This document shows positions 6,850 through 47,084 of a stretch of DNA of 62,492 bases, in pieces. The notes under the pieces are model-generated. The model was not told where the DNA came from. It saw only the letters and a program-made list of their open reading frames with translations, and made no database searches. The first letter of the stretch is position 1. Each line of letters opens with the position of its first letter. The position numbers were made by a program, and so were the translations under genes. Source of the DNA: Rhizaria sp. SCN 62-66 (Eukaryota); NCBI GenBank assembly GCA_001724265.1, contig MEDY01000148.1, positions 1-62,492 of the forward strand, written 5' to 3'.

Positions 6850-6908
<59 letters not shown>

Positions 6909-7035
6909 GACTGCTGGTGCCAACGGCAACAGTCGGTTTGCTCCTGCGTCGCCGCTGCTGCCGCCTATTGCCGGCGCGGCCAACAGCAACACTCAGCAGA
7001 ACGCCACCGCTCATACGAACGTCAATGCCAACAGC

Positions 7036-7075
<40 letters not shown>

Positions 7076-8985
7076 CCGGTGCCGGTGCCGCTCGCTCTGG
7101 CTGGATCAAGTCACCCCAGAGCAAGATCATCATTGCTCCGAAGAAGCCTGCCGCCGCAGGCGCTTCTGCGAGCCCTGCCAGTCCCCCTCAGCAGCAGCAG
7201 TACAAGCCCAGCCCGAGCCCGGCCCAGTCTAAGCCCCACGCGGCTGATGGTAAAGACGGCAAGGATGGTAAAGACGGCAAGGATGCCAAGCCGCACGCGC
7301 ATGACGCTAAGTCGCATGCCCCGGAAGCCAAGCCGCATGCCGCTGAGGCGAAGCAGCATGCCGCGGAAGTCAAGCCGACCCCGTCCAAGCCTGAGGCGGC
7401 GGCCAGCGCCAACGCGCACAACAGCGCCCAGCCTGCGACTCCTTCGTCTCCGACGGCCAACGCGACTATCACCGCCGGCCCCATCAGCGCGAGCGCGAGC
7501 GTCACTGTGGCCGGCAGCGGCGCGGCGGTTCGTCGGCCGTCGACTGCGATGGACTCTGCGATCGTGGCCGCGCTGAGCGGCGTGTTCGACGGCGGCGATC
7601 ACGGCGAGGGCCACGGCCACGGCGACGACGAGATCGACACCGCAACACCGGTCGGACACACCGCGACGGTCGCCGCGCTCAACGGCAAAGACCACGGTGG
7701 TGCGCACGATGACGGTGCCAAGAAAAAGGAGGACGAAGAGAAGGTTAAGGCTGCTAAGTCTAAAGCTGAGGCTGAGGCTGCTGCTGAGGCTGCCGCTAAG
7801 GCTAAGGCCAAGGCTGACGCGGATGCTAAGGCCAAGGCTGATGCGGAGGCTAAGGCCAAGGCTGACGCGGAGGCTAAAGCTAAGGCTGACGCAGATGCTA
7901 AGGCCAAGGCTGACGCGGATGCTAAAGCTAAGGCGGATGCTGAGGCCAAGGCAAAAGCAGATGTCAAGGCTAAGGCTGAGGCTGATGCAGAGGCTAAGTC
8001 TAAGGCAGAGGCTGAGACCAAGGCCAAGGCCAGGGCTGAGGCCGCTGCCAATGCTAAGGCTGAGGCTAATGCACATGCCAAGGCTAAGGCTGAGGCTGAG
8101 ACTAAGGCTAAGGCTGACGCGGAGGCGAAGGCTGATGCCGACACCAAGCATAAGGCTGATGGTGCTGCTAACGCGGAGCACAAGGACAAGAATAGCGACA
8201 ACAACGACGACGACGACGACGACGAGGCTCTTAACGGCGACGAGAGTGCCGGCTCCAAGCTCTTTGCCAGCGACAGCGACGACGATGACAAGGACGCCGC
8301 GGGCAGCAACAACAAGCCCAAGGATGACGACCACAAGAAGGCCGCCGACGATAACGACGGCCAAAAGGGCGACAAGAGCGGCGACAAGAAGCACGACTCC
8401 AAGCCCAACACCCCCAAGGTCCACGCCTCGCTCACTGTCCCTGCCGCTGCCGACGCCGACCACGCGAGCACTCCGAGCAAGTCGGCCGACTTGGCCGAGG
8501 ATGCGGGCGACAAGAGAGCTGTGGCGACGCCACGCTTGCAGCCGCGGCCGCCGTCTGCGCCGAGGGTGGGGACCGCGCCGCGCTCTCCGGCTCGGCTCGT
8601 CAGCAGTCACGATAAGGCCGGCCGCGAAGGCCACGACAGCAGCGACAAGGGCGACGACGGTCATGAGGACGTGTACAAGGAAGGCGTGCCTAGCAGTGCT
8701 GAGGACGCTCATAGTGACGATGAGAGTCCCAAGAGTGCTCACCACGACGACAATGACGCAGCGTCTAAGCAGGGCAGTCCTAAGAACGCTCACGATGACA
8801 AGGACGAGGACGCTCACAAGGACGACCACGGTGCAAAGAATGTGCATGTTGAAGAGGGCAAGGATAAGGCCCACGATGCGCATAAGAAGGACGACGGCCA
8901 TGAGGCTCACAAGGACGAGAAGCATGATAAGAGCAAGAGCAAGGCAGACGATGATATGAATATGGGCTCTGATCTTGACGATTGA
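5932..8985 (+). CDS. Hypothetical ~1,017 aa protein: N-terminal coiled coil, poly-Asn, AKAKAD/E repeats, Asp/His/Lys-rich tail
   Basis: Long ORF with strong GC3 bias from about 5932. ATG chosen downstream of an acceptor-like TAG at 5885-5887; start could be 5980. TGA stop. Confidence 0.8.
6850..6906 (+). repeat. (AAC)19 coding microsatellite, poly-Asn
   Basis: Perfect AAC run inside the CDS. Confidence 0.95.
7750..8165 (+). repeat. Coding tandem repeat, ~24 bp unit encoding AKAKADA(D/E)
   Basis: Repeated gctaaggccaaggctgacgcgga-type units; Ala/Lys/Glu helical repeat. Confidence 0.9.
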
Positions 8986-9419: not shown

Positions 9420-12400
9420 TTAATTTTCAACAAAATGAAGCACTTCAGCGACGACAGCAGCAGTCTCTTGTGATGCCCCCGTTGCCGCGGCCGCTGCGGC
9501 CAACCGCGCAGCCGCTGCGCTGCCTGCAACAAACGGTTTTTGCAGCAACACACGCTCCATCAGTGCACACTCTGCACGCGAGAGCTGTGAGCTGAGCATG
9601 AACAGTCGCGCCATCGACGTTTCCGACACAATCGCAGGCGAAACAGTCTCAGTCTCAGTTGCGTTGATGTTTTTGGAACTGTACTGATTATGAATAAACA
9701 GCAAATGACGCGCTGCCTGTGAAAGGGCGCGTTTCACAGCGTCAGAACGCATAAAATCTCTATCAGAGCTGCTCGTGTTGTTCCTGTCGTCGTTCATCTT
9801 GACAGTGATGAGGAGTGTGGTCAGATTGGCTGGCGAGTCCAGCACCGTTGACAACAGCGCCAAGCCGCCGTCAAGTAAAGTTGGCTCAGTTGACTGCGCT
9901 TGCGATAAGTCCGTCAGAAGCGCCGGAACTAACTCTTGCAACAGGGTCTCATCCAAGTCTTTCGCGCTGTTGCTGCTCGTGGACTTTGTCGAGGCAACGG
10001 CCCCCCTGGCGCCACCCTTGGCGCGCCCAAGCGTCTCGCGCGCGTCCGCACCACCCGCCACAGAAAAAACCACAGTCGCCGAGCGTAGTACACGCAGTGC
10101 AAGGCCGCGCAGCGCGGGCAACACACTCGCACCCCAGTCGGACTGTGTCGGCAACGCTTGCGGGATGTCCGTGGTGACCGCGCCGAGCACGGTCACACCG
10201 GCGGCCAGCGACGCCGCGTAGCACACGTTGAGCACGCTGTGCGTCACGGGGGCGAGATACGGGTGCAATGCAGCAGCGCGGCGCACGAGCTCCCGGTCGG
10301 CGTGCCACACACTGCTGACGGTTGAGTCTGCGGTACTTGGACCAGAAACAGCGAGACACCAGCGGTGCGCATCAAGAGCAATGGCATGAGCGACGGATGT
10401 AAGAGCCGACTGCGCCTGCGCAGCAACAAGCGCGGGAAGAAGCACAGACGCGCACCACGCAACGCACCGCGCAGCTGACGCAGTTGCCGCAGCGACGCTA
10501 GGGCCGGACTCATTGTTTGCCTCATCATTGTTGTCACTGTTCTTCGCAGCTGTGAGCACTGAGAGCGCAAGCGCAGCAACGTCAGGCGCGTTCGCCAGCA
10601 GCTGCGGCAGAATTGGTGCAAGCGTGAACGCTGACGCCGCAGTCTCCGCTACCGTGCACGCCGCCACAGCCTTGGCCTCAGCCGCTGCGGCTTCGCTGGC
10701 AATGCGAGCAATAATAGCATCAGATGTTACCTCCTTGGACGGAGTGCTAGGGTCAGTGAAAGGGACAGTCGCAGAGGCGAGCGTCGACGCGGACGAGAGC
10801 GGCGCGCTTACACCAAGAAGCAAGAGAGTAAGGGCGGCTTGGGTTCCAGCCGCGAGGCTCTCCGAGTCAAACCCCGAGTATATACCAGTATCAGCACCAT
10901 AGACCTTTGCAGTTGCAGTCGTTGTCGTGGAGTCGACACCTGCAGCCGCTGCGGCCAGCGGCACGATCGCGGAGAACCGCCCAGGTGCGTCGGCAAGCAA
11001 CACGCCACTGTGGGGCAACGCACGCGCGCGGGCACTGGGCAACGCTGACGAAATCACACCACCCGACGCGGAGGCCGAACTCCCCTGCAACAATTCTTCA
11101 TTCGCTGGAGTTGATGCAGTTGCCGAAACGTGCGCATTGCTAGTCGTGACATGGACAGCGGTGGACGACAGCAATGGCATCGACACGGCAACGCTTGTGT
11201 TGGAGTGCGTTGTCGTGGGAAGTGACGGCAGGTGCATCGCACCAGAGCCAGTGATGTTGACCCTCCGCAACACGCGTGCCCACAACGAGCGCACCTGGTT
11301 CCGACTGGCTCTGACATCAGCAACACTCACACTTGGCGTGAGCACCGATGCGGCTGTAATAGCAGCGGCAAGCAGGGCCACCGACGCAGTGGCGTCGGCC
11401 CAGCTCGCTGTTGTCACCAGCCGCTGCCTCCACTTCTGGTTGTGCACCCCCTTAGACGAAGATGTAAGTCCCTCCTTCGGCAGAGGCGCACTGGGAGTAA
11501 GGTGCAACATTGTGCCCAAGTGATGAGCAATGGTCGCGCCGGTGCCGGCGTGGCGGCTGAGCAAAGACCAAAGACGCTCACCGTCATTTGCAGTGGAGAT
11601 GATCAGGGCGCACGTGCGCGTGAGTACAATCAACGCGCGAGTCAGCGCGAGCGCTAAGCCACTGTGCTAACTCTTGTTCCCGCTATTCTGGGCATTCGCA
11701 TCCGCCAAAGCAGTCTGCTTTTGGAGCTGCGCGTGCGTAGAGAGCAACTGCAGCCTGCGGCGGGTTGCGCGGCGGTCGCCACGGCTCACGCCACGGCTAA
11801 CACTGCCGTTGCTCGTCCTCTGAACGCCAGATACAGTGGTTGCAGCAACGCCTGCGATGTTGCTCGAGGGCGCAACAGTTGCCGCTGTCACGGCGACGCT
11901 ATCCGCCGAGGTTGCGCTGCTGTTCGTCGGGGATTGCGATATACTCGAAGTCAGAGGATTGAAGGGTGCCGCATCGGCGGAAAGCGTCGATGTGCTAAGA
12001 CTGAGTGGTGAGGCACTTACATCGGTGACAAGTTGCTGGTCGGAGCCATCACCGCCGTCATTTTCATTCTCACGTTCCACTGTTGCTGTATCCCCAGTCA
12101 CTACATTCACATCTTTATCGGCGGGCACGCGAGCATCCGTTTTGCCATCGCTGACATCACTCACGCGCATGTGCGCAAATGCAACGAGGTTTGTCATCAC
12201 AGCCGCAGTCGCCACCAACAGTGCTGGCAGGGCCGCCGCAGCAGCATCAGGGTCTGCGCGCGCCGCTTGCGCGACACTACTCCAACCGGAACCAGCGCGA
12301 GCACTGGCGACTGCAACTGCAACGGCGGCAGATGCAAGTCCGTGGCCACCGGGCGTCACACACACATCCCGTGCAAGCGCCTCCGTAGTGTCATTCGCGG

Positions 12401-12807
12401 TTGCGGCGACAACAACAGCATTCGCTGAGGCTACAGCGGCAACACGGTGTGTAGCGTCAGTGCTTGTGCTGTTGTGCGTGAGCGCGAGAGTAAGTGCGCG
12501 AGCCGCCGAGGCAACATGCGAAAACGCACCAGTGGATGCGATTGAGTCGCACTCAACAGCATCACCGTTCTTTTCTTCGAGACCAGCGTCCGCGTCAGCT
12601 GCACTCCTGGTTTTCTCAGTGTCACCGTCGCCAGCGACAGTGGCAGCAGCCTCGGCAAACTCAGCTGCAGCCAGCGCTTCAGCGCGCCTGGCAGTCGTCT
12701 TGTTCTTCTTCTTGAGGCGCAGGTGGTACTTGCGCGCCGCGATAGCGCCCGCCACGGCCTCGGTCACAATCGCGGGGTCACTGTACGGGCCCTGACCTTG
12801 TTGTTGC

Positions 12808-12839
<32 letters not shown>

Positions 12840-13353
12840 AAACTGCGCGTCGGCACCAACAGCAGACGTACTTGCCGCCGCCTCAACGGCATCTGCGCCG
12901 TTATTGGTGGCAACCGCAGCGGCACCAGAGCCCACGTTCGCCCCATTCGGGACATTAACACTGTTGCTCTTGCGCCGCTTGGCGCGCCACTCCTTTTCCC
13001 GCGCCACGTGCTCGGCAGTGCGCAGGTGCGCGAGCACTGCGGCGGCACCCACGCCGGCCGCGGCGCCGCACGCACGGCACCGCATGCGCGTCGGGCGCCG
13101 CGGGTATGAGATGAGCCCTGAAGTTAAGCCGCTGCCGGAGCCGGAGCCCGGGGAGGTCACGCTCCCGCCCTGGGAGGCGACGACGCCGCTAGGGGACGCG
13201 GTGACGCTGCCGGTCGCGCTCGGCACAGGCAGCGCTGCAGTGTTCAGCAGCGCGGCAGCTGCTGCGGCATCTGTGGCGCCAGCGGTAGGCGTCGCGGCGC
13301 GCGACGGCATCGCAGACACGGGGACACTGGCGTTCACAGAAGTCACTCCATTG

Positions 13354-13398
<45 letters not shown>

Positions 13399-25220: not shown

Positions 25221-28200
25221 TCACTTCTGAGCCTTGCTGTTCGCTCTGCCATTCGCCCCCTTGCCACCACCACCGCTGCTGCTACTGCTGCTGCCCATGT
25301 TGCGGTGGAATGAGTTTGTGCTGTGGGGCCGCGAGTCCATCGGAGTGTTATTCGCGCTCAGCGCCTTGCCAGTCCACGCGCCGCCGCGAGGGTTCGCGCC
25401 CTTGCCGGGACTGGCGACCCCTTGGGTACTTGCGAAGCTCACAGCGTCACCGCCGCCGCCGGCAGGGTGGGGGTTGCGCCACTGAGACTGCCGGTCAGAC
25501 TCGGACAGCTTGCGCGGGCGACCTTGTTGTGGCGTTTGTGACTGCTGCTGCCGCGGCTTCTGAGCCTGACTGCCCTGCCCGCGCGCCGCCTGCTGCTGGT
25601 GACCGCTGTTGTCGTACTGGGGGGCGTAGCCGCCGACCGCAGCAACGTCGGGCGCGGGCAGCTGCGTCAGCGTCGCCCTCACATCCTGCAGTTGCTGAGT
25701 CTGGTCATACTGATCATACTGGTACTGCTGCTGCTGCTGCGCCTGCTGCTGGTGCTGCTGCGTCTGCAGCACGTCGATCTGCTGCCGCATCATCGCCGTC
25801 GTGGCTTCGTCGACGCCCTCGAGCATCTGCACCTGCTGCAGCAACGCCAGGTAGTCTGCAAGCGAGACCACGTTGCCCAGTGCGTCGACGACGACGGCGC
25901 TGCCCATTGCGGTCGCGTCCGGCGCTGCATCGGCGGCGCCGTAGCCCAGGTCAGTACCCGTGACCGTACTCGTGACATCCATGGCGCCCGTGCTGTCGTA
26001 GTAGCCGGCGTTGGTGTTGTAACCCAAGGCCTGAGCGTCGCCGTACGCGCCGCCCATCTCCTGCTGCTGCTGACTGTAGTAGCTGCTGCTGAGGGGCGCG
26101 TGGTTGGGCGAGGCCGACTGCGACAAGAGCGACACGGCCGGCGGCAGCGCGATCGGCCCGTCCGAGCCCGCACGCGCGCCCCGAGTCGTAGGCGCGCCTG
26201 CCGCACCCATCGCATTCGCCGCTGCTGCGTTCTTGACGTTGGCGTTGGCGGTGGCGTTGCTGCCGTACGAGGCCAGCGTCGTCGTGTGTGCGAACGCGTC
26301 GGCCGCGGCCGCGGTCGCGGCGGCGGCGGCGCTCGCGGCGGCAGCGACCAGTGGCGGCGACGCCAGCGGGCCCAGCCGCGGTGACAACGCAGCGTTGGCC
26401 ATAAGGGCCGCGGCGACGAGCGGGGACGCGCCCGCCGCGACGGCCGCCGCCTCGCCGCCAGCGCCCCCCGCCTGCGTACCATGGGTGTGATGCGGCGAGG
26501 ACACGGGGCCCGCGTGGGGTGACGCCAGAGGAGTCAGGAAGCCAGGCGGGGGCGCACCGGCGGCGGGCCGCGCATAGGCGCCAGAGCCCGGGCGCACGGC
26601 AGCGCCGGAGCCCGGGCGCATGGCAGCGCCGGAACCTGGGCGGAAGCGCGCGGGGGACGCCGCAGGCAGCAGCAGCCCGGAACCTGTCCCCACTGCAGCG
26701 GAGTTGGCGTGAAGCGCGGTTGACAGGGGGGAGCCAACGGCGGCGCCCGCGCCTGGGGGCTGCTGCTGTTGTTTGCGAGGGCTGAAGGCGTTGCCGCCGG
26801 CGATGTTGGAGCCCAGCGACGACGACAGCGCAAAGTCGCCCGTATCAGCGCTCGTCGCATTCGCGTTGGCGCTGGCGTTGGCGGCAGGGATTGAGCTGTT
26901 GAAGAAGTACCCTTCAGCGTTTGCGTTCACCGTAGTATCACCAGCCGCCACCGTAGCCAGACTGGCGTTGGTCGGCTTGCCGCCGTTGCTATCTTTGCTG
27001 CCGGGGGTCTTGAGCGCGCTGTCGATGGGCGACACGAGCGCAGACACGAGCGCGATCGATGACGAGAGGGAGTCGGCACGCGTGAGTAGCGGTGCCGGCC
27101 GCGGAATGATCGGCCGCGGCGGCGTGCCCAGGGCGTTAACCGTCGCCGCGGCAAGCTCGAGCTCGCGCGCCAGCACGGCGTCGGCGTCAGCCTCGGTGAC
27201 ATCGCCATCGCCGCAGCCGAAGTCACCGCCGAGCTCAGTGATATCCTCACCAGTATTGGAGGCGGCGGCGGCGGCGGCGGCGGTATGGGCGTTCGCGGCG
27301 GAGACGGCGTCGGTCGTGGCGGAGTCGGCCGTGCTGCGCAGCGGCGACGGCGGAGCCAACACCGGCGTGTCGGCCTCGCTTGCAACGGACGCCGCCACGG
27401 CGCCGGGCGCAACGCCGACCGCGACGGACACGGCGATGCCGGTGACGCCCGCAGCGCTGCCGCTGCCGCTGCCGCTGTAGCTGTTGACGGAAGCGGCGCG
27501 CGGCGACTGTGACGACTGCGAGGAGGGGATGTTGGGCGACACTGACGACGCCTGCGTGAGCACCGAGGCCAGCAGCCCGTTCGCGGGCGCGCCGCCTAGC
27601 CGCGCGCGGCCGCGCGCCTGCGGCTGAGGCAGCGGCGTCGGCATCACGAGCATCTGGTCGTTCTCTGCGCCAGCGTCCGCCGCCGCTGCTGCTGAGTCAG
27701 CAGCCGCAGCTGCAGCGGAGGCGGCAATCATGCGCGCTTCGGTCTCCGCCTCGGCTGCCGCGACCGCGGCGGCGGCGGCCATGGACTGGGCGTGCGCTTG
27801 CGCAAACGCCGCGTGCGCGTGGGCCTGGAGCACGAGCCGCTGGCGCTCGAGCTCGGCGCGCTGCTGCTCAAACTGGCGCTGCGCCTCGAACTGCGCGGCG
27901 CGGATGTGAGCGTTCTCGGCCTCGGCGGCCGCGGCGGCCTCGGCCTCGGCCTGCGCCTGCGCTTGCACCTGCGCCTGCGCCTGCGCCAGGAACGCCAACA
28001 TGTGGCCCGGGGGCACCGCAGACGCGGCGGGGGCGGTCGCCAGGTGACCGTGGGCGCCCGCGCCGCCCATCGTGCCGCCCAAGTGACCGTGGGCAGCGAG
28101 GTGACCGTGGGCGGCCAGGTGACCGTGGGCGGCGACCGTGGGCTGCTGCGGGAACCCTGTCGCCATCATGCCGCCGGCTCCGACGTAGGGCCCGTTGACC

Positions 28201-28899
28201 CCGCCGTTGTATCCACCACCGTACGCAACATCAGGGCCCGTGAAACCCGCGCCGTTGGGGGGCACGCCCGCGCCCGCGAGCCCCATGTTCGCGTTGTTGC
28301 CTACGTTGACGTTGACGTTCGCGTACATGTTGCCGTAGTGAGGAGCGCCGTATGACGAGGTCACGGCGTTGGCGGCGGCCACGGCGGCGGCGGCCGCGGC
28401 GGCGAGCGCGTTGTTGTTGGCGGCGGCGACCGCGGCGGCGGCCACGGCGGCGGCATTGGCGCTGACGTTTGACACTGCGGCCGTGGCGGCGTCGGCGTGC
28501 ATGGTCAGGTACGTCCCGTCGGTGTTGGACGCGTTCATCAGCATCAGCATCCCGGCATTACCACCGCCACCGCCGTTGTTGCTACTCGACGCGGCATTCG
28601 CGGTGGAGCCAGCGCCAGCGCCCGTGCCAGCAGGGTTTTGACGCGAGCGCGTCTGTTGCTTCGCGCTCGCAGTCCACTGCTGCTTCGCGCCACCCTGCAT
28701 CTGCACCGGCTGCTGCTGCTGAAGCTGCTGCTGCTGTTGTTGTTGCTGTGCAGTGTTGATCATCACGTTGTTGCTGCTGTTGCTGGTTGAGGAAGCAGCG
28801 GTGCGCGCGCGCGCACTGTTCACGCTACTGTAATTGTTGTTATTGTTGTTATGCACACCGGTGACATCACGCTTCAAACCCTGTTGCTGCTGCATCTGC

Positions 28900-28931
<32 letters not shown>

Positions 28932-30067
28932 GAACTGCGCAGCGAATGCGAGCTGACTTGGCGCCGTCACAGCCGCCGTGCTCCCGCCAGCGCTGCTCTT
29001 GGCCCCTGTCACAGTGTTGCCAGCAGCAGCAGCGGCTGCGGCAGCAGCGGCTGCAGCAGTGGACGCGGCGGCGGGCGGCGCGGTGCGCGCGGCGAGGAAC
29101 GCCTTTGCTAGTGAGCTGGGGTCGCGCAGCAGCGCGGGGTCATTGAGTCCCAGAGCAGCGAGCTGAGCCGAGAGCAGCTGGTACCCGCCGCGGCGGCCGG
29201 AGTGGTTCACTGCGATGGCCGCCGTCGGGACGGGCACTGGACCTGGGGCTGAGACCGGCGCAACGGAGGCGGCAGCGGCGGCGGTGGGCACCGGCTGCGG
29301 CTGCTGTTGTTGTTGCTGTTGTTGTTGCTTCTTGGCCTTGGTGCTCCTGTTTGTGGTGGCGGTGGCGGCGGCGGCAGGTTTGGTGACGCCGTCGACGTCG
29401 TTGTCTTTGACGCTCTTGTCAGCACTGCTGCTGCTGCTGCTGCTGCTGATCTGATCGTCGTCGCCGTCGGCAATTACGACGACAACACCGGTCGCAGTTG
29501 CGGCAGCAGCAGTCGGCGCATCGGCACCGGCAGGCTTAGCGGCACTGTCCTTGACAACAATTGCAGCAGCGCCGGAATCCTTCGCCTTCGCGCAAACGGA
29601 CCTGTCGGCGTTTGCACCGGCGGCATCAGTCTGCGTTGCAGCATTTGCAACAGACTCAACAAGAACATGAGCAGCGGTCTTGTCAGCCTTTTTCGCACCG
29701 CTCGGGCTGGCAATATTTGCAGCAATCTTGCTGTTCTCAGTGTGACCTCTAGTCCCTGCATTCGCATTCGCGGGCGCAGCGGCAGCCGCAGTAGCAGCAG
29801 CAACAGGCTTCGCAGCCTTCAATGTGGAGGGCATGGGCGCCGCCATTGGTGGCATGCTAGGGCCGGAGCCGATGCCTGCGCCAGAGCCTGAGCCCGCGGC
29901 GGCGGCCGCCGCGGCTATCGCGGCCGCGGCGGCAGCGGCGGCGAGCTGGTCGGCGACTGAGTACACCGTTGGTGGCGTCGCCACCAGCATGCTGCGCACC
30001 GCGGCGCCGGCCCCCGCCGCGCTACTGTGGGTCGCCTGCGACTGAGATGAGGGCTGCGTGTGCGGGA

Positions 30068-30102
<35 letters not shown>

Positions 30103-31816
30103 TGTTGATGTTGCCTCCGCTGCTGCTTGTCGTTGTTCAAGCCAGCCTTGGCCAATGTGTTGCCGCTGCCGACATTGTTGTGCGCGACAGCAGTCTGTGG
30201 CGGCAGCTGCGGCGGCGAGAGGAGAAAGCGCGCCTCGTCCGCCGCCGCCGCCGCCGTCGCTATGGCCGCCGCCGCCGCCGCGGGATCCGCAGCCGCCGAA
30301 GCTGCGGCCGCGGCCGCGGCCGCCGACGCCGCGGCCGCGGCTGCCGCGGAGACCTTGGTCGACGCGGCGTCGCGCGCGAACTTGACGATGGCGGCCTCGT
30401 GGCTGCCGCCGATGTGCTGGCCATCGCAGTGCAGGATCGCAGACAGCGCGGCCTGCAGCGAGTTGAACTGGACAAAGCCGACGTTGCGGGACTCGCCGTT
30501 GCCGTCGAACAACACCTTACAGTTCATCACCGTGCCGTAGGTGGAGAAGAAGCGCTGCAGCTCGAGCCGGCCCCACGCGTGGGGGAGCCCGGCCACGTAG
30601 ACGTTGGTCTTGGCAGTCTCCGCCCCCGCCGGCGCACCACCCGCCCCAGCCGCCGCCACAGAGGCCGCCGCAGCGCCGGGGCCCTGATGCTGCTGCTGCA
30701 GAGAGGACTCAGCGTGCGCGTGTGCGGCGTCGGGGCGCGAGTGCGTGACCGGCGATACCTTGAGCACTTTGCCCAACAGGTAGGTCCCGTTGAGGGCGCG
30801 CGTGGCGGCAGTCGCGGCGGCCGCGGTGGCGAAGGTGACGAAGCCGTACCCCAGCGAGGCGCCCGTGCTGGCGTTCCGCATCACGCGGCACGTCTGGATG
30901 TCGCCGTGGGGCGAGCACAGGCGCCGCAAGTCGTCCTAGACGGGACCAAGATGAACACATGTGGGAGTGCGAGCGAGTGAGAGAACGTGCATGGCGTTGA
31001 TATTAGGGCGGGCGTATTGAGGTTAACGAGGATCATTTTGGAAATGAAGGCAATTGTTCAGTAAATTTTTTTTTTTTTTTTTTTGTTTTGTTAAGTATGA
31101 GTGACCAAGCGTACCGTTGTGAGTGAAGGAGGCAGAAACTTGACAATGAGGTGCAGCGGGTTGTCAACGGCGCCGCCGCCGCCAATGGTGGAGCCAGCGC
31201 CGCTGCTGTTGTTGTTCGCTGCTTTGTTGGCAGCGCTCTTCGCTTTCGGCTGCTGCTGCTGTTGCGGCTGTTGATGTTGTTGTTGTGGGGGCGCAATGCC
31301 AGCGGCAGTGGCAGAAGCAGCAGGAGCAACAACAGCAGAAACAGCAGCGGCAGCGGGGGTGCCGCTCACACTCGCGGGAGCAGTCGCCGCCGCTGCAGAG
31401 TCAGATGTCGAAACAACAGCTGAAGTGTCACTACCGCCAGCGGCAGACGCGGCAGCAGCAGCAGCAGCAGCGGCGGCGGCGGCGGCGGCGGCGGCCTTCT
31501 TTTGTCTCTTGCTCAGCTTCTTGGGACCATCAGCTGCAACACCAGCTGCCGCCTCAGCTCCAGTCTCGGCCTCGGGATCAGTCGTGGCCTCGGTATAACC
31601 CGCGGGCCCTACAGTCGCATTCGCCGGTTGAGCGTCAACGGGGATGGTGGCGGGAGCGCTAGCGCCAGCACTGGCGCTCTCCGGCGCAGCGACAACCGCA
31701 GTCGAAGCACCATGAGCAGCGCCAGGAGTGCCATCAGCAGCTGCTGCTGTTGCAGAGGGGGCGCTGGCGCTGTTTCGCTGCGCGGCTGCGGCGACGGTAG
31801 TCGACATCTCGGGCAT
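25221..31816 (-). CDS. ELAV/Hu-like RNA-binding protein with two RRMs and a very long Ala/Gln-rich tail (~2,138 aa); exons 31816-31115, 30935-25221
   Basis: RRM1 LIVKFLPPSLTT|DDLRRLCSPHGDIQTCRVMRNASTGASLGYGFVTF; RRM2 NVYVAGLP...RNVGFVQF...VKFA. TGA stop. Confidence 0.8.
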
Positions 31817-36700: not shown

Positions 36701-37144
36701 GTTCTGTGAAGAGCGTGTCTTGGTTCTATGACTGGCCGATCACGCCTGGGAGCTGTGATGTTGTCGGGTGGACAACTTGAGAGTGACATAGGATGTGAAG
36801 AACAAGATATGTGGGCTAGGAACAGGTCAAAGCAAAGTGTTGCAAAAATATAATTGATAACCCGTTATTTTAAAACTAAAACATTCTGATAAACCGTTGT
36901 TGACGATCAAAGCACAGAGTTATTCAAAGTTCCGATAAGGCTTGTCGGTGGGGATGTGTGTCCGATCCCACCAACATGTTGGACTTATTTAGAACCATCA
37001 CACAAATCCACATTGCATATGAAAATGTAGATGCCACTTTTTGTACACATAATGAGCTGCATGTATTTATCTAAAACCATGCTTCGTATCTCCTTCGTTT
37101 TACTGCAGAAGTCGCACTACCCCTCCACGTCCCACTCGAGCGGC

Positions 37145-40100
37145 ATGCCTGGCCCCGCGCACCGCAGCAGCGCTGGCAGTGCCAGTCGGTCCATATACCG
37201 TCGTCTCTTGCGCCACATGAAGCGTGCCCAAGAGCTACACCCGTGCTGGTATGACAGCTTTGTCAAATCGATCAAGATCGTCTCCCGTGACCCCTCCGCA
37301 GCCACCCTCACAGTGCCCGCGGCAGTCACTGCTTACGGTGCCACCGCTGCACACGGTCATCACTCTGCAGCGGCGTCGACCCCTGCGCTCCGCACAGAGT
37401 TTGCCGCCGCTACCAGTGCGGTTGGCGCCGACTCTGCGGAGGTCAAGGCGCGCGCACTGTGGGCGCTGGTGGACACGGTGATCCCGCCCATCGCGACGGC
37501 GCCGCTGCCTCTTCAGCAACAACAGCAGCAGCAGCAGTCACCCCGGTTCAGCCCCGATGCACGCCCAGGCAGTGGGCAGACTGGTGCATTTTCCGCTCAT
37601 GCAGCCTCTCCGCAGTGGCTGTGTGTTGACTTGGTTAAGTCGCTCTCTGTACAGGCGCGTGCTCTGATGACAACGGGCTACGCAACTCCCGTGTACTTCG
37701 ATGCGTCTATGGATCATATTGAGCATGCCGGCGTGGGGCGAGAATTTCCCACTGTGCCCGCTGGCATGGTGTTAACTCATACTCTGCCCTCTGACTCACG
37801 CACAGCTGCGAGCAGCAACTGCAGCAATGCGAACGCAGATAACACTGATACCAGCAGTCGTCCAAGCCCAATGTTGCCCATAGTCTCGTACCCCCCTAGT
37901 CAACCCACAATCAGCACTCACCCTGCCTTTGCAGCCACAACGATGCCGCTGTCCCCCTCCCATTGTTTGGACTTGTCACTGCTCGCGCTCCGCACGCTCG
38001 ACCTTCTTGCGCCCCACACTGCCGCAGCAGCCGCGTTTCCAGACACGTTGCGCCGAGTGGAGCGCGAACTGACGGCTGCTCACGGTCACTTCACAGTTCC
38101 ACACCTGATTAAGAAAACCGCGGCGGACTTGGGCTCAACGGGCCGCATGAATGCTGACGCTGCTCACAGTCACGAATTGATTGGAGAGGCTGCGGCACTG
38201 CTGCGCTTGCTGCTAACAGTCGGCAACATCATCGAGCCTGCTCAAAACCACTCAGTCAACATCAGTCAGAATCAGTCTATCACCAGCGACACCTCTTGTG
38301 ATCAGACCACTCTTAGTCAGTTTGCGTGTGATTTCGGGCTCGGCGCAGAGGGCAATAGTGCAATGCAGCGTGTGCTGCTCACGGTCAGCGCACTTGTGGC
38401 CGACCTGGAGCACTCGCCACTTACACTGCCATTGCCACCGAGCCCTAATGCGGGCGCCAACGCGAATACTAGTTATGATACAGGCATGCAGTCGCAGCAA
38501 CATCAGCAACAAGTACAGACATTGCTGCTTAGTCGTCCCGATTCGCCGCTCCCGCCGTCAGTGCGCCTGTCCGCCGCCTCCGCGGTGGCCGCCGCACTGT
38601 TTCCCATGCGTTCTCAGTCGCCCTACTTGGTTGCTCCCCAGCATAGTCACGCGGCAACCGTCGCGGCCGCTGCCATTAACGCTGCAGCCGCGCTTGAAAG
38701 CAACACACGCTCTGCGAACGGCGCCGTGTCTTTGTTACCGTCAGCCGCGCTTACTCCCGTGCCGCTGTCGCCGCCGGTCGCCGCGGCTCTGGCCCAACTG
38801 TTTGCAGCAGCGGCCGGTGTTCGTGTCCGCGCTGTTGCGACCGCGAGCGGCACACCGCTGTTGCTGTACAGGCCGCCGCCGCTCGAGGCCGCCGCTGCGA
38901 CTGCCGCTGACTTAGTCCGTAACAGGACCGACAGTGGCGAAACGAGCGTTGGCGCGGTGAACGAGAGGGAAGAGGTTGAGGACGGAGGACAGCTGTGTCG
39001 AGGTGAAATGGCTGCGCGGCTGCAGGGCGGCCTGCTGTTGAGGCACTCCGTGCGAGTGCGCGCTTTGAGTGCAACTGTTGCGAATCATAAGCAGCACAAT
39101 GACGACACAAGTTTCAAGACAAATACTGCAGCCAGAGGTGATGTTGATGCTGCGGTTGTTGACAGCATGACCTCTGCTGTCTCAGCTAAGGAACTCGCAG
39201 CGAAGCTACTGCAGCAACGCTTCCCGCATTTGAGCAACTCAGGCAAAGTCAATATACCATTGCCAGAGGAGATCAAGAACTCCAATTCTAGCTCAGATGC
39301 GCAGAGTGATGTTGCAAATATCATTGACTCTGCTACACCTGTGCAAGCGTTGCCTCAGCCTTCTAGTGGCTTATCTTTGATCAACGGCCTAACATCCTCG
39401 CTGGATCCACTGCTGTTTGACACTACAGGCGCATTGCCTGTGCTTCTTACGCTCTCGCCCCCACCCACTGCGACGTCGCTCTACAGCAGCAATACAAACG
39501 CCGGCGCCGGCAGCCTTGGCGGCGCTGCGGGCAGCGGTGCGGGCGGCGCGCCTCCAGTGCTCACGGTCGCTGCGGTGACCGTGGGCAGCGCGAGCGAGAA
39601 ACGGCTGTACGAGCGCCCTACGGGCCCGCGCTCCGGCGGGCTTGGGTGGTGGGTCCCGCCGTCAGTGCAGTCTCCAGAACAATCTCTGACTGTGACTGCT
39701 CCGACTCGGAGTGAACAACTTACTGTGAGCTCCGTGAACAACAGTGTTAATGCCAGTACCAATACGTGTGTGAACACATCTGCAACAAGTGCAAGTGCTG
39801 CGCTGACGGTGAGGCTAGCGCCGCATAACCACCGCTCGTCCGATCCCTTGTTTGCGCCCTTCGGAGGCATCGCTGTTCCTTCCACCGCTAGCAGTCACAT
39901 GAACGAGAGCAATAGCGTGTCGCACGGCGCGAGCATCGCGAACAACAACACGGCGCTTGTTTTCACCCACGACAGCCCCGCTGGCGTGAACACCCCTTTA
40001 ATTGCCGTCCCGGGCGCCGCAGTGCCAATGCTGCCACTCTCGTCGCCGCGGCAGCAAGCGCTGCGTGTGGCGCAGCTGGCGCTGGCGTGCGAGAGAGTGA

Positions 40101-40399
40101 TCCGTCTTCCTATGCGGCGCCAGGCTGTGACGCGCGCCGCCTTCGCGCTGCACTGCATGAGCGAGATGTCTGTAAACCGCAGCAACGGTGCGATGACTGC
40201 GCGCGATACGAGCGATTCGAGCGCTCTGAGCGCTCGTGGCGCTAGTGGTAGTGTTGATAGCTTCACGACTGAGTGGGCTCCGTCGGCGGCGGTGCGCGCG
40301 GTGGCGAGTGCGGCCGCGCTGTCGCCGCAGGGGCTGCTGTGGGGACCGGCGTCTGCGGCGGAAGCGGAGTGGCAGTGCATATTCGCGAGAAAGAAATGA
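37145..40399 (+). CDS. Hypothetical ~1,084 aa protein with LYR-like N-terminal motif
   Basis: Long uninterrupted ORF; SRSIYRRLLRHMK near the N-terminus; ATG 37145 follows an acceptor-like CAG at 37106-37108. TGA stop. Confidence 0.7.
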   Translation: MPGPAHRSSAGSASRSIYRRLLRHMKRAQELHPCWYDSFVKSIKIVSRDPSAATLTVPAAVTAYGATAAHGHHSAAASTPALRTEFAAATSAVGADSAEVKARALWALVDTVIPPIATAPLPLQQQQQQQQSPRFSPDARPGSGQTGAFSAHAASPQWLCVDLVKSLSVQARALMTTGYATPVYFDASMDHIEHAGVGREFPTVPAGMVLTHTLPSDSRTAASSNCSNANADNTDTSSRPSPMLPIVSYPPSQPTISTHPAFAATTMPLSPSHCLDLSLLALRTLDLLAPHTAAAAAFPDTLRRVERELTAAHGHFTVPHLIKKTAADLGSTGRMNADAAHSHELIGEAAALLRLLLTVGNIIEPAQNHSVNISQNQSITSDTSCDQTTLSQFACDFGLGAEGNSAMQRVLLTVSALVADLEHSPLTLPLPPSPNAGANANTSYDTGMQSQQHQQQVQTLLLSRPDSPLPPSVRLSAASAVAAALFPMRSQSPYLVAPQHSHAATVAAAAINAAAALESNTRSANGAVSLLPSAALTPVPLSPPVAAALAQLFAAAAGVRVRAVATASGTPLLLYRPPPLEAAAATAADLVRNRTDSGETSVGAVNEREEVEDGGQLCRGEMAARLQGGLLLRHSVRVRALSATVANHKQHNDDTSFKTNTAARGDVDAAVVDSMTSAVSAKELAAKLLQQRFPHLSNSGKVNIPLPEEIKNSNSSSDAQSDVANIIDSATPVQALPQPSSGLSLINGLTSSLDPLLFDTTGALPVLLTLSPPPTATSLYSSNTNAGAGSLGGAAGSGAGGAPPVLTVAAVTVGSASEKRLYERPTGPRSGGLGWWVPPSVQSPEQSLTVTAPTRSEQLTVSSVNNSVNASTNTCVNTSATSASAALTVRLAPHNHRSSDPLFAPFGGIAVPSTASSHMNESNSVSHGASIANNNTALVFTHDSPAGVNTPLIAVPGAAVPMLPLSSPRQQALRVAQLALACERVIRLPMRRQAVTRAAFALHCMSEMSVNRSNGAMTARDTSDSSALSARGASGSVDSFTTEWAPSAAVRAVASAAALSPQGLLWGPASAAEAEWQCIFARKK

Positions 40400-41520: not shown

Positions 41521-42276
41521 CTTGTTCTATACAAAATAACGAGGCACAATCCAACGAGTCAGCATGACATGGGGGACATTAGTTAGATGTGCAGCCATAG
41601 TTCAGATATCGCATATAACCACACGAATTAATCAGTGTAAGGAGTTTTCATACGAGTTAGTGGTCGTCAAGGGTTTCGAATCCCCATTGTTGTAAGGAGT
41701 AGATTCATCTGGAGTCCAGGCACGCGTCGAACTGAAATGCCTCTGGTATACATCACCACAGCAAAATCATGGGGTACACAAAAAAAGAAATATCATCGCA
41801 ATCTGTTAAAATTCGGACGTCACAAATTGAAGACATTCTAACGTCTCTTTATGTCGGACAATTGAAGACAAAATTCAATTTTCCCTCGCCCGAAGAAACG
41901 CCAGACAGTCTTGTCCCTCCCTCTGTCCCTCTGGCCAGTGTGCAGCTTTGGTGTTCATCATGACATTACACGTTTGTATTGTAGCTAAACAATGCTGTAC
42001 ATGCTGAGTTTGCATGGCACAACGTAATCATATGTATTTTCCTGCTAAGGCGTCCGACTCCAGAGACAGACTACACAACACGTACACACTAGAGACAGAC
42101 AATCGAAGCTTATAAAGCACTACAAACTAAAACAAAACGTTCTCCAAGCGCTAGAAGACTCCGCCTAAGTTAGCGTTCACGCACCCAGACTCGTACCAAC
42201 GCGCCAAGCGATCTGACGCATCTCAACAACATCATGGTCACGTTTGTATGTTCGTTCAGTCGAGCGAGCTCCCTAC

Positions 42277-45200
42277 TCAGATGTGCGACTTCTTCTTGCC
42301 CTGTTGAATGTGCCGCGCACGGTACGCAAAGCGCAGTGTAGACAGCGTCTCAAGCACCTGCGCGTGGTCGCGCGAGCACGTCACAAGCAGTGTGCGCTTG
42401 CAGTTGGCGTACCCACCGAGCGCCTGCTGCAGCATCTTGGTCAGCTCGCTGTCGCGGTACGGGATGTGCGTCGTGCTGGGGTTAGACAGGCACAAGATGC
42501 AGCGTTCCAGCGTGGCGAGCGACTTGTTGATGTTCTTCGCTTCCTCGAACCGCTTGCCGTGCGTGAGACTCTTTTTCTGCCGCTCGGAGCCGGCGAGATC
42601 GACGAGGTTGAACTTGTTGCGCTCGCGGAAATTACGCTCCACGTTGGTCTGCGTCAGCGTGATGGTGAACAGACAGTGCGAGCGTGACGAACGCTCGTTC
42701 ATCTGCGTCGCAAACACCGTCTTTTGACGCTCTCCGGTGGCGAGGATGTGGTCCACGTCCTTCATACTGCTCGCGCGCAGCAGAGCCGGGTTGTCGAGGC
42801 GGAAATCGCGGTCATTGGCCATGTCCTCGATCAGCTGTAGCCGCGCGCCGCCATTGAGCAGGTCGTGGATACGGTCCTGGTAGATCTCCACGTAGCTCAC
42901 CTCGAACGTGTACGACGTGCCGTGCTCGTGGTTCAGCGTGTGCAGAATTTGCTCGCACGCGCGCGGGACCACGCCCCACAGCGACCGGTCCGCCGGCGTC
43001 AACTGGCCGGTTACGGGATGGATCAGACTGGGACCGAACATCGTCCATGTCTTGCCTGACGCTGTCTGTCCGTAGACAAAGACCGTGGCCGAGTAGCCGA
43101 AGAGCACGTCGCGCGTCATGCGCCACACGAGGCGCGCGTAGAGGTCCTTTTGCGTCGTCGTGCCCGCGAACACGTCGTGGAACTGGAAGTGACGAGGCCT
43201 ATAGAAAGCAATAGAAAAATGGTGTGAAAAAAAAACACATCTTAGAATATTATGCAGAAAGACAGTTGAAAACAACGTGATGACGACGTGACAGACTCCC
43301 GAATAATTTGGTCGAGATAATGCGACTTGAATAAAATATAAAACGTGTAGCAGCAAAGCGTTGGTCGTACCTGTCGTCGACGGTGGCGCGGACCGAGGCC
43401 GTGAGCTCGGAGACCTCAACGATCTCGCACTTGCCCTGGTGCATCTCGACCCACGACCGCGCGTCGTCGCCCTCATCGTTGTCGCCGCCCGCCGCGCCGC
43501 CCGCGCCGCCGCGCTGCTGCTGCTGTTGCTGCTTGCGTGGGCTCGTGCTGCGGCGACTGGGACTGCCGCTGCCGCCGCCCGCGCCGCCGCGCGGTCGCGC
43601 TTGCTGTGCCGCCGACAACGAAAGCGACGCGAACGACGACGTCATCGACCCGCGGCCGCGGCCCGGGCTGCCGCTGCGGGGGCTCCCGGACGCCGTCGCC
43701 GGCCCCCCGCCGCTGGGGGCCGTGGTCGTCGCGCCGAAGCTCACACGCCCTGCGCCGCTCGTAGTGGACTGGGGGCCCGAGGAGGCGGCCCCTGGGGTGA
43801 TGATCTCGTATCCCTCAGGCGCGTCCTCGTCGTCGTTGTTGGTGCCATTGACGCCGCCGCCGTTCGCAGCCCCGATGCCATGGCCCGCGGCGCCGTGCCC
43901 AAACCGCCCGCGCGCGTTGCTGTTGCTGCTGCCCGCGCTGGCTGCGCTGCCATCAGTGGTGAACTGCGCCTTCTCGGCCTGCTCTTCCTCCGGCAGCGGC
44001 TTGAAACGTACGGCGACGCGGAGGTGGAACATGCGCTGGCCCTTTTGCTTCTCCAGCTCCAGAGGCACCCACTTGGTGAAGTACGTGTGCAGGTACCGCT
44101 TCCAGTCCGCGCACGCGTGCTCCGCCGGCAGCGACCAGGCGGGCTTAGTGGCGAAAAACTCGAGGCACTTGTTGTACCAGATCTCGTGCACGTTACATGC
44201 TTCGCCGACGCGGGTCGACACCAGCGCAAGAAGCGCGGCCTCGGTGAAGGTCAGGAAGCCGCAGACGCGGACCCAGAGCCGCACAGGCAGCGTCGCCCAG
44301 TTGGCCTCGGAAGACATGTTGGGCACCATGGCCGCGATCGCGCGCGAAACGGTCTCGCGCTCCTCTGCGTCGCCCAGTGTCAGACTGGCGCGGAACGTGT
44401 CATACTGCTGTTTGGTGACCTGTGCGCGCACGAGGCAGCCGTCGAGCTGCCGCAACGCGCTCGCGATGGCGCCGTCGGCCGCGCGGCGGGCGCCCGAGGC
44501 GACGGCGAGGGCGTCGTCGCGCGCGCGTGCGTCGTCGCCGTCGTCGGCGCGGTGGTAGAAGGACAGCAGGGCGAGCGCGGCCTTCTGCTCGGCGGCGTCG
44601 CCCGACTCGAGTTTTGCGGAGATGTTTAGGTGCTGCGCGTGCGTGATCGCGCCAGAGGCCAAGTCGCTGTCGAGAACGTCAAGGATCTGGCCAACACGCT
44701 CGTGCGAGAGCACTCCGCTCGTGGCCGCGGCGGCGGCGACCATGCTCGCACTCGCGCTGCTGCTGCTGTTGTTGTTGTTGTTCGCGGCCGCGACGGCGGC
44801 GGCGGCGGCGGAGGTGGGCGCGCGCGATAGAGCGAGTGCGTTGCCGACGGGGCCCGTTTTGCTCTCATCGACGGCGGCAGCGCCAGCGCCCGCGGCAGAG
44901 GTGGCCGGGCGCGACTGCTGTTGCGCAGCGTTGCTGGTGTTGCTGGGGGAGGTAGCGCCGGAGGGATTCTCGGAGTCGGTGAGCGGCAGGTAGGGCGCTT
45001 CCTCGCTGGAGATGATAAACTGTTGCGCGGTCAGGTCGTAGGTGCCCGCCTTCCACAGGTCAACACGTTGGCCAGCCTAGAGTCGCAAAGCCAGATCAAA
45101 GAAACAAGAATAAAGCGGTCGTTAGAGGAAGAAACTGGGTAAAGAAATAGCTGTTCCATTGAAATCAACAATAGCGGGGTTTCATAAGAAATGACTTCGA

Positions 45201-45679
45201 GATACATGGTGGCATAATCGTCATGTTTGTGTGCTGGCAGGACGTACATGGGGCACAGGGTGCCAGAGCATGATGCAGTACTGGCGGTGCGACGCGAGGC
45301 GAATGCGCTCATCGGGGCCCTGCAGCCAGAGCTGCTGCGCCTGCTTCTTGTAGTGCTTCTCGACGCGCGACACGCAGAGCTGCGCGCCGTTGTACGCCAC
45401 ACCTTTCGCCGTGGACAGCGTTGCAGTGTCAGGGTGGCTGTGGTCAAGGGTGACGTGGAGACAGAAGTTCGGGTCGGAAGACAGCAGGATACGGTCGTCA
45501 GGCGACAGTGACCAGAGCTGCAGCGAGTTGAGGTTTGAGTTGGAGCGCGCGAGCTTGACGCGCATGCCCGAGACCGTGGGCTCAGCCGGGTCTTTGATCA
45601 CCTGCAAACAGTACTGCTCGCCGGGCGGGCTCGCCTTGTACACGATGCGGGACTCCTCCACGGACGAGAAACGAAGCAT
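42277..45679 (-). CDS. Kinesin with C-terminal motor, F-box and N-terminal ricin-B-lectin-like domain (~1,019 aa); exons 45679-45248, 45076-43371, 43198-42277
   Basis: Motor motifs LRVAVRFKP, YGQTASGKTWTM, VSYVEIYQD, MNERSSRSH, LVDLAGSE, NINKSL, HIPYRDS, ETLSTLRFA. F-box WATLPVRLWVRVCGFLTFTEAALLALVSTRV. QxW repeats in exon 1. Both introns have GTACG donors and keep frame. TGA stop. Confidence 0.85.
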
Positions 45680-46316
45680 GGTCGGATGGGACTGCAGTCA
45701 ACGCACGATTGTGGCGGCTGGCTCACCTGTGGTGGCTGTTGAAGCGGGGTCAGAGAGAGGCCTGTGGGCTAGCGGCACGGAAGGGCGAAGGGAAACGCGC
45801 CTATCAACCTGTGTGTGGGGAAGCAAAAACTACAGGGCCATATAGAGAGGTTGAAGCAGGTTATAGTGAGTGTAATATCGATGTATAAAAAAAGCACTGT
45901 ATGAATATTACTTGTGGCGCTATAAATATTCGAATGACTGATTTAGCACAGCATGGCAGATGAACGAAGTTGAACCGTTTTTCCCTGCCCTCGCTCTTGC
46001 CCGTTGGGCGAGTGCGCTCACGGTCACTTTTCACTTTCGACCACAAACGGCCGAGAGTGAACGAGCAGACCAGACCTATTCGACCTGCCCTCTACAAAGA
46101 CAACGTCAAAGCAACCTCTTCCGACGACTACTGGATACCTTTCTTCCTACTGTAATTAATTTGGCCGTTTTATATCACATCATGTAATGCTATTTGAATT
46201 GGCGACGTTTCAGGCTGCTAAATCCTTCTCTATGTTCTGAGACACGTTTTTGTGGTGAACCATCTCACTCTCTGACTTCTCATATCCATTCCGGCCTCAC
46301 ACTGCCCCCACAGATC

Positions 46317-47084
46317 ATGTCGTCATACTCCGTTGACGCGCAGTGGTCGCAGCAGCACCAGCACCAGACACGCGACGGCACAGCTCCATCCTCGTCCTCT
46401 GACAGCAGTGTGGGTGAGCTTGCCTCCGCCTTCGCTAGCAGCAATCCAGCCTCTGTTTCCTCCGCAGCGGCCGGGACCGGGCCCTCCGCGGCGTCGCTCG
46501 CCGCCGCAGCCGCCGCAGCCGCCGCGCACGGTGGCTACGCCATTAACCCCGCGCAGCAGCATCCGCCGCTGCCGCAGCAGCAGCAGCAGCAGCTCGGCAC
46601 CAGTAACTTCCACTCGCACTCGCACCCCGTAGCCCACGGTCACGGCTATCATGGCCACGGCCACCACGGGCACCCCGGCCACGCGGGCGCGCTGGCGGTC
46701 TACGGTGGCGGCGTCGCGACTCTGGCGAGCGGCACTGAGGGCTCGGAGCCCGCGCTGACCCTGGCGGACCACGAAGACCGTCTGCTCCCGGTCGCCAACA
46801 TCGGCCGTCTGATGAAGCACTCGCTGCCCGCCAACGTCAAGATGACCAAGGAGGCCAAGACGGCGTGCCAGATCGCCGTATCCGAGTTCATCGGGCTGAT
46901 CACGGCCGAGGCGTCGGACCGCATGGTCGAGGACCAGCGCCGCACCATCACCGGCAATGACTTGCTCGATGCGCTGCGGGCGTTCGGGTTCGAGGAGTAC
47001 GTCAAAGACCTCGACCCGCTCGCATCGGAGCTCCGCGTCAAGAAGGCTAACAGTGCCGGCGGCGGCAGCGCGGGCAACGCTTAA
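46317..47084 (+). CDS. NFYB: Nuclear transcription factor Y subunit B (HAP3) histone-fold protein
   Basis: EDRLLPVANIGRLMKHSLPANVKMTKEAKTACQIAVSEFIGLITAEASDRMVEDQRRTITGNDLLDALRAFGFEEY. TAA stop. Confidence 0.9.
   Translation: MSSYSVDAQWSQQHQHQTRDGTAPSSSSDSSVGELASAFASSNPASVSSAAAGTGPSAASLAAAAAAAAAHGGYAINPAQQHPPLPQQQQQQLGTSNFHSHSHPVAHGHGYHGHGHHGHPGHAGALAVYGGGVATLASGTEGSEPALTLADHEDRLLPVANIGRLMKHSLPANVKMTKEAKTACQIAVSEFIGLITAEASDRMVEDQRRTITGNDLLDALRAFGFEEYVKDLDPLASELRVKKANSAGGGSAGNA

Follow-up and report, generated by a model that had tools for sequence, protein, structure and literature searches.

Relation to described systems

Extra domains that are specific to particular lineages are numerous in kinesins; a survey of 1624 kinesins by Wickstead and colleagues lists 105 architectures (PMC2867816). 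The main text of that survey has 0 occurrences of F-box, and two of its supplements contain neither 'F-box' nor 'Ricin', the architecture tables being outside the scope of this comparison. Here we analyze a gene on the minus strand of contig MEDY01000148.1 of Rhizaria sp. SCN 62-66 (positions 1 to 62,492; this whole 62,492-nt stretch is referred to as the window) whose predicted product joins a ricin-B-like β-trefoil, an F-box and a kinesin motor in a single chain. Phrase and broader literature searches returned no report of an F-box and a kinesin motor in one chain, in agreement with the original prediction made from this DNA, which knew of no characterized kinesin with such an architecture; the InterPro catalogue was outside the scope of the searches, and catalogued examples may exist.

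Among described kinesins, the window motor can be compared most directly with kinesin-1. Its best solved relatives are the Neurospora kinesin heavy chain (1goj, 197 bits) and KIF5C (185 bits), most named database matches at 40–42% identity are kinesin heavy chains, and the P-loop and switches are canonical. The lead of kinesin-1 is small, however, with Eg5 at 182 bits and KIF3B at 181 bits. The window protein also differs from kinesin-1 in having no neck linker, stalk or tail, in carrying an F-box module before strand β1 and a 189-residue insert after it, and in belonging to a family that forms its own group in a motor tree, apart from the kinesin-1 rows.

A second point of comparison is provided by Fbs1/FBXO2, Fbs2/FBXO6, FBXO27 and the plant sugar-recognizing F-box proteins, in which an F-box is likewise joined to a carbohydrate-binding-type domain. 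In the Fbs proteins, the sugar-binding domain is C-terminal of the F-box. In the window protein, by contrast, the lectin-like part matches Ricin_B_lectin just under the Pfam cut-off, sits N-terminal of the F-box and shares the chain with a kinesin head. The lectin-type F-box proteins of mammals and plants are reported to act in the cytosol as sugar-recognizing receptors of Skp1–cullin–F-box (SCF) ligases (PMC6389600, PMC4603797). A ricin-B-type lectin fold is also reported in the cytosolic protein VPS13D, where its ligand is not known (PMC10953354). A cluster of VPS13D fragments is the top look-alike in the Atlas feature comparison for the first 165 residues of the orthologue P0258 described below (score 0.95, a lead only), but the remainder of VPS13D has nothing in common with the window protein.

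Gene structure and an uninterrupted orthologue

Between 41800 and 46200, the minus strand of the window consists of GC-rich coding sequence broken by two AT-richer stretches, which we interpret as the introns of a three-exon gene (45679-45248 / 45076-43371 / 43198-42277). A scripted join of the exons gives a reading frame of 3060 nt with 0 internal stops, encoding 1019 residues. The start ATG occupies 45679-45677 and is preceded by an in-frame stop six codons upstream. The parts of the gene are as follows.

45248..45679, minus strand: exon 1, residues 1-144, with the start codon, trefoil repeats α and β and the beginning of repeat γ
45077..45247, minus strand: intron 1, 171 nt, GT..AG, starting GTACGT and ending TAG
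43371..45076, minus strand: exon 2, ending in a codon split by intron 2
43199..43370, minus strand: intron 2, 172 nt, GT..AG, starting GTACGA and ending TAG
42277..43198, minus strand: exon 3, coding from 43198 to 42280, with the stop TGA at 42279-42277; kinesin motor core

Intron 1 contains four in-frame stops and has a GC content of ~0.47, compared with ~0.62 in the exons; intron 2 has a GC content of ~0.42.

The strongest support for this gene model comes from a related protein. Searches with the motor led to P0001, which is 67% identical, and to P0258 (1125 aa), a member of the 90% cluster of P0001. A search with a two-row alignment recovered a sole locus, L001, from a 284-kb metagenome contig of a related environmental eukaryote. 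P0258 corresponds to positions 5387-8761 of L001 at 100% identity and in a single frame, and is therefore encoded without introns, so that the window gene has two introns where its L001 orthologue has none and intron 2 in particular has no counterpart there. The L001 locus has a GC content of 0.51, below that of the window exons.

The order of parts is identical in the two proteins, and their alignment is ungapped over both splice junctions of the window model. Residues 1-156 of the model are 43% identical to P0258 (E = 3e-30), and exon 1 taken by itself matches P0258 residues 1-152 with the same identity and E-value (43%, 3e-30). Identity is 49% over residues 310-1010 of the model and 67% over the exon 3 motor core. 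Both proteins begin with the same three residues, both stop 10–13 residues past the α6 motif of the motor and both carry an insert after strand β1, which in P0258 lies at the equivalent site inside the uninterrupted frame. Because P0258 is one uninterrupted frame and aligns without gaps over both junctions, the fusion is independent of the splice model, as the original prediction had argued, from their shared exon, for the F-box and the first motor strand. Its central claim, that one polypeptide combines a ricin-B-like domain with an F-box and a kinesin motor, is borne out by the same layout in the 1125 codons of P0258.

Sequencing reads contribute less. Four sequencing runs searched over 42100-45900 gave no contig on or across either intron, a point against the spliced model. 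Parts of all three exons are covered by short contigs, some from a polyA RNA library (X2) and others from two probably-DNA libraries; the read evidence as a whole neither demonstrates nor rules out splicing or expression. Taking the gene model and the orthologue together, we are nearly certain that the locus is one genuine protein-coding gene carrying all three domains.

The F-box and the split motor domain

The features of exons 2 and 3 that bear on the junction between F-box and motor are listed here.

44162..44299, minus strand: F-box (protein residues 404-449; exon-2 residues 260-305), Pfam F-box-like
44027..44161, minus strand: linker from F-box to motor (residues 450-494), with W86 and W97 (numbering of profile A1, see below) invariant in 6/6 members
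43997..44026, minus strand: kinesin strand β1 (residues 495-504), with an RxRP-type motif at 497-504
43430..43996, minus strand: Gly/Ala/Ser-rich insert of 189 residues (505-693), between β1 and the remaining motor
43371..43429, minus strand: motor strands (residues 694-713) that precede the FxFxxVF motif, at the end of exon 2, ungapped relative to P0258
43071-43048, minus strand: P-loop (residues 756-763), canonical
42690-42676, minus strand: switch I (residues 883-887), canonical
42600-42583, minus strand: switch II (residues 913-918), canonical

The motor assignment is straightforward. The Pfam Kinesin model (PF00225) matches exon 3 with 288.9 bits (E = 5.8e-86; cut-off 29.3), and its P-loop and both switches are intact, as first described. 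The match begins only at model position 40, so strand β1 must be upstream. A profile of 118 ordinary kinesin N-termini places the β1 consensus on residues 495-518 (7.1 bits, E = 0.0022 among 8 targets), on exon 2 and ~45 residues past the F-box. The F-box and β1 thus share one exon, in accord with the earlier reading of the DNA; the start of the F-box at 44299 given in that reading also stands, whereas its end, placed there at 44174, moves to 44162 according to the Pfam match. The disordered insert that separates β1 from the rest of the motor has a GC content of 0.75–0.79, compared with ~0.42–0.47 in the introns. At its C-terminus, the window protein stops 10 residues past the α6 motif and has no neck linker, stalk or coiled coil, which agrees with the claim that the protein ends with the motor.

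For the F-box, the evidence is most convincing when the family is considered together. We built a profile (A1) from six family members and searched it against the sequences of the Protein Data Bank. At E up to 10 there were 41 matches, 36 of them to proteins named as F-box proteins, Skp2, KDM2A/B, GID2 or Cdc4; of the other five, two are ribosomal proteins and three are unclearly named. FBXW8 (E = 1.8e-6) and Skp2 (E = 6.3e-5) rank first, and the whole three-helix motif is aligned. Among the individual members, P0107 scores 31.5 bits for F-box-like, over the Pfam cut-off of 24.3, P0003 scores 20.6 bits for the same model and P0010 matches the F-box family with 13.6 bits; P0133 has no Pfam F-box match, yet it aligns with the family. 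The module sits at a fixed short distance ahead of β1 in 6/6 members, and A1 columns V115, R118 and F119 within β1 are invariant, the second Arg of the RxRP motif being Lys in the window.

Several observations weigh against a functional F-box in the window protein itself. Its Pfam F-box-like match (18.2 bits, E = 0.0021) is below the cut-off of 24.3, P0258 has no Pfam match for this segment at E up to 1 and the leading Leu-Pro of the window F-box is Leu-Asp in P0258. An AlphaFold2 (AF2) model computed from A1 is helical but of low confidence, with a mean predicted local distance difference test (pLDDT) score of 56 and 67–73 in the core. A Foldseek search with this model gave no match at E = 0.001; among the matches listed, all of them weak, 35/38 are F-box proteins, mostly from Skp1 complexes. 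On balance, we take the F-box to be real at the level of the family, judging from the sequence profiles.

A clade of F-box kinesins

The original prediction treated the architecture as a one-off, and in this respect the present results differ from it. When A1 was run over 260 kinesins, the F-box-to-β1 module was found in nine proteins only: P0258 and three cluster mates, P0003, P0010 and one cluster mate, P0107 and P0133. The next-best match among the 260 had an E-value of 0.0012. An F-box and a kinesin motor are thus combined in at least six sequences less than 90% alike, the window protein included, and all six are environmental. In UniRef, EukProt and MMETSP, no named member of the clade appeared among the matches listed. 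A word-indexed search with A1 returned the window product and three known members only. Exon 2, used as the query of such a search against longer proteins, gave no match, probably because low-complexity sequence swamped it. The 30 large clusters nearest to P0107 residues 270-802 in the Atlas are annotated with kinesin families alone, an F-box being absent from all 30.

We examined the relationships of these proteins with IQ-TREE, in a quick tree built from 70 motor domains. It omits four duplicates within clusters, four proteins with multiple repeats, every row in which fewer than 270 residues aligned and 4/5 of the unnamed matches. The window protein, P0258, P0003, P0010, P0107 and P0133 fall into one group with P0126 and P0002, both of which are N-terminally truncated. 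This eight-row group has an SH-aLRT support of 99 and a stem of 0.71 and lies outside the groups with named kinesin heavy chains; as the tree was made without a reference set spanning all kinesin families, the group may still fall into another named family. P0107 and P0133 are on long branches. Together with the restricted distribution of the module, this grouping makes it very likely that the window protein belongs to a conserved clade of F-box kinesins.

Members of the clade differ at both ends. A C-terminal extension of ~70–130 residues follows the motor in P0003, P0010, P0107 and P0133 and is absent only in the window protein and P0258. Conversely, Ricin_B was found in the window protein and P0258 only and was not seen in P0003, P0010, P0107 or P0133, a point against the mechanism favored below. 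The latter four are encoded on contigs of 2.6–2.8 kb, however, so further upstream exons are possible.

Two other fusions were seen among the environmental kinesins: P0193 is joined to a Cdc20/Fizzy-type WD40 propeller and P0250 to a Ulp1 SUMO-protease domain. These suggest that the joining of motor heads to ubiquitin-like machinery may recur.

The N-terminal domain and the linker

The N-terminal domain of the window protein is probably a ricin-B-type β-trefoil, an assignment that draws on its internal repeats and on matches to a single lectin family. The repeats are placed as follows.

residues ~22-70, minus strand: trefoil repeat α, in exon 1
residues ~71-132, minus strand: trefoil repeat β, in exon 1
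44993..45076, minus strand: remainder of trefoil repeat γ (residues 145-172), at the start of exon 2, with a degenerate third QxW-type motif

Pfam Ricin_B_lectin matches the window protein with 28.6 bits (E = 1.8e-6, for a query piece ending two residues before the end of exon 1) and P0258 with 28.5 bits (E ~2e-6). Lectin-type Pfam families other than Ricin_B_lectin gave no match in the window protein at E up to 1. Alignment of repeat α with repeat β gives a z-score of 9.2 in the window protein and 7.5 in P0258, with 0/500 shuffles scoring as high. The Atlas feature clusters nearest to P0258 residues 1-165 are the VPS13D fragment, Ricin_B_lectin, RicinB_lectin_2 and CDtoxinA (scores 0.94–0.95), and, besides the VPS13D fragment, all look-alikes with a named family are ricin-type or CDtoxinA; these scores have no alignment or E-value behind them and serve as a lead only.

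The points on the other side are that (i) the Ricin_B scores of both orthologues fall 0.4–0.5 bits short of the Pfam PF00652 cut-off of 29, (ii) repeat γ resembles α and β only weakly (z = 1.6 and 0.0 in the window protein; range 0.0–2.3 with P0258 included), (iii) a two-row profile of the domain found no ricin-type match among solved chains and (iv) AF2, supplied with a two-row alignment for P0258 residues 1-165, produced no usable model (pLDDT 32). The cut at residue 165 was made in P0258, where, judged by eye, the last trefoil strands lie beyond it, after a low-complexity loop. The earlier description of trefoil repeats over exon 1 and the start of exon 2 is accordingly upheld in its first part, by the α/β duplication, and is less secure in the weak third repeat and in a Ricin_B match just under the cut-off. 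The Ricin_B score was no higher (26.4 bits) when intron 1 was read through, its stops being entered as X.

Two further segments connect the trefoil to the F-box.

44705..44983, minus strand: Ala/Ser/Asn-rich linker (residues 176-268), delimited by composition count
44324..44695, minus strand: short helical motif present twice (residues ~272-395), pattern L..LD..L..G.IT..QY

Positions 44716-44826 within the first of these were flagged as a repeat during read mapping. The helical motif, searched as a regular expression, occurs in two copies in the window protein and in P0258 and in one copy in P0003 and P0010, and was found in 0/251 other kinesins. It resembles the SHOCT motif but matches no Pfam family at E up to 1.

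Neighboring reading frames

The DNA around the gene is so GC-rich that an open frame alone is weak evidence for a gene, and the Pfam matches in the neighboring frames are limited to RRM, histone-fold and weak BAR domains. The divergent neighbor and the other long frames in the window are listed below.

46188-47084, plus strand: NF-YB/CBF-type histone-fold protein (Pfam CBFD_NFYB_HMF, E = 1.2e-14), with a long Gln-, His- and Ala-rich N-terminus
25221-30935, minus strand: open frame of 1904 codons that begins with two RRM RNA-binding domains (E = 6.7e-28)
11667-21083, minus strand: open frame of 3138 codons, no Pfam match at E = 1e-5
5677-8985, plus strand: open frame of 1102 codons, no Pfam match at E = 1e-5
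37031-40399, plus strand: open frame of 1122 codons, no Pfam match at E = 1e-5

Possible functions of the fusion

Any functional interpretation presupposes that the fusion is not an artefact of the gene model, with exon 1 belonging to a separate gene or with the Gly/Ala/Ser-rich stretch being non-coding. The lack of an RNA contig bridging either intron leaves room for such an artefact, as does the fact that every frame is open across the GC-rich insert, so that an open frame there proves little. Against these points stand the whole layout of P0258, insert included, in one 1125-codon frame, the ungapped alignment over both junctions, a γ repeat that begins in exon 1 and finishes in exon 2 and an insert whose GC content (0.75–0.79) is far from that of the introns (~0.42–0.47). 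We consider an artefact highly improbable. Two other alternatives concern what the F-box does. SCF substrate receptors typically have a ligand-binding domain at the N-terminus and an F-box after it, and this argues against the idea that the window protein binds Skp1 without being a receptor. In that case, Skp1 or SCF would control the stability, activity or assembly of the kinesin itself, and the trefoil would be a cargo or localization domain. The F-box sequence evidence, including the P0107 score above cut-off and the A1 matches, serves this alternative and the favored reading alike, none of the present results separates the two, and the alternative has precedents in the SCF-independent, non-canonical roles reported for ~12% of human F-box proteins (PMC3814724) and in the reported control of kinesin-13 and STARD9 levels by SCF (PMC8441365, PMC4310736). 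We regard it as unlikely, although worth keeping in mind.

It is equally doubtful, in our estimate, that the F-box-like helices have ceased to bind Skp1 and now serve as a structural element at the cover-strand site, tuning or dimerizing the motor of what would then simply be an unusual kinesin carrying a lectin-like cargo domain. The fixed short spacing to β1 in the six members fits this arrangement, as do the sub-threshold window score (18.2 bits), the missing Pfam match and Leu-Asp dipeptide of P0258 and the low confidence of the AF2 model. On the other hand, the matches to A1 are almost exclusively solved F-box chains and extend over the full three-helix motif, P0107 exceeds the Pfam cut-off and 35/38 of the weak Foldseek matches listed are F-box proteins.

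The original prediction proposed a microtubule-targeted SCF adaptor or, alternatively, an F-box protein that recognizes tubulin through its motor domain, a reasonable suggestion in view of the known roles of the three families. The function that we favor, tentatively, is that of a microtubule-anchored SCF substrate receptor. It is suggested by the combination of a receptor-type layout, the precedent of the lectin-type F-box proteins and a neck-less head. By established kinesin mechanics, a head that lacks both neck linker and coiled coil is unable to step as a dimer, and the head of the window protein is therefore more likely to be a nucleotide-gated microtubule anchor. In such a mechanism, the F-box would recruit a cullin-1 ligase by docking Skp1, the β-trefoil would select the ligand, either a glycan or a protein, and the monomeric head would not walk but hold the complex on microtubules in a nucleotide-dependent manner, so that ubiquitination would be limited to the microtubule surface. 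Where relatives have a C-terminal extension, the same module may instead travel along microtubules.

Control of kinesins by SCF ligases acting in trans is known; a single chain that holds both a motor head and an F-box was not found described in the literature searches. Provided that the F-box functions, ubiquitin-ligase activity would be placed on microtubules, or moved along them, and the lectin-like domain would add a new fold and a new cellular site to the small class of sugar-recognizing F-box proteins. More speculatively, the F-box kinesins could be an undescribed family joining SCF to a motor, to which the window lineage has added a trefoil and from which it has lost the stalk, resulting in a microtubule-anchored and possibly glycan-directed receptor that might, for example, mark damaged or mis-sorted membrane cargo. 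The stalkless, neck-less head is also a natural test of the use to which a lone kinesin head can be put. Because the clade is so far known only from environmental sequence, it draws attention to the cytoskeletal biology of eukaryotes that have been sampled poorly.

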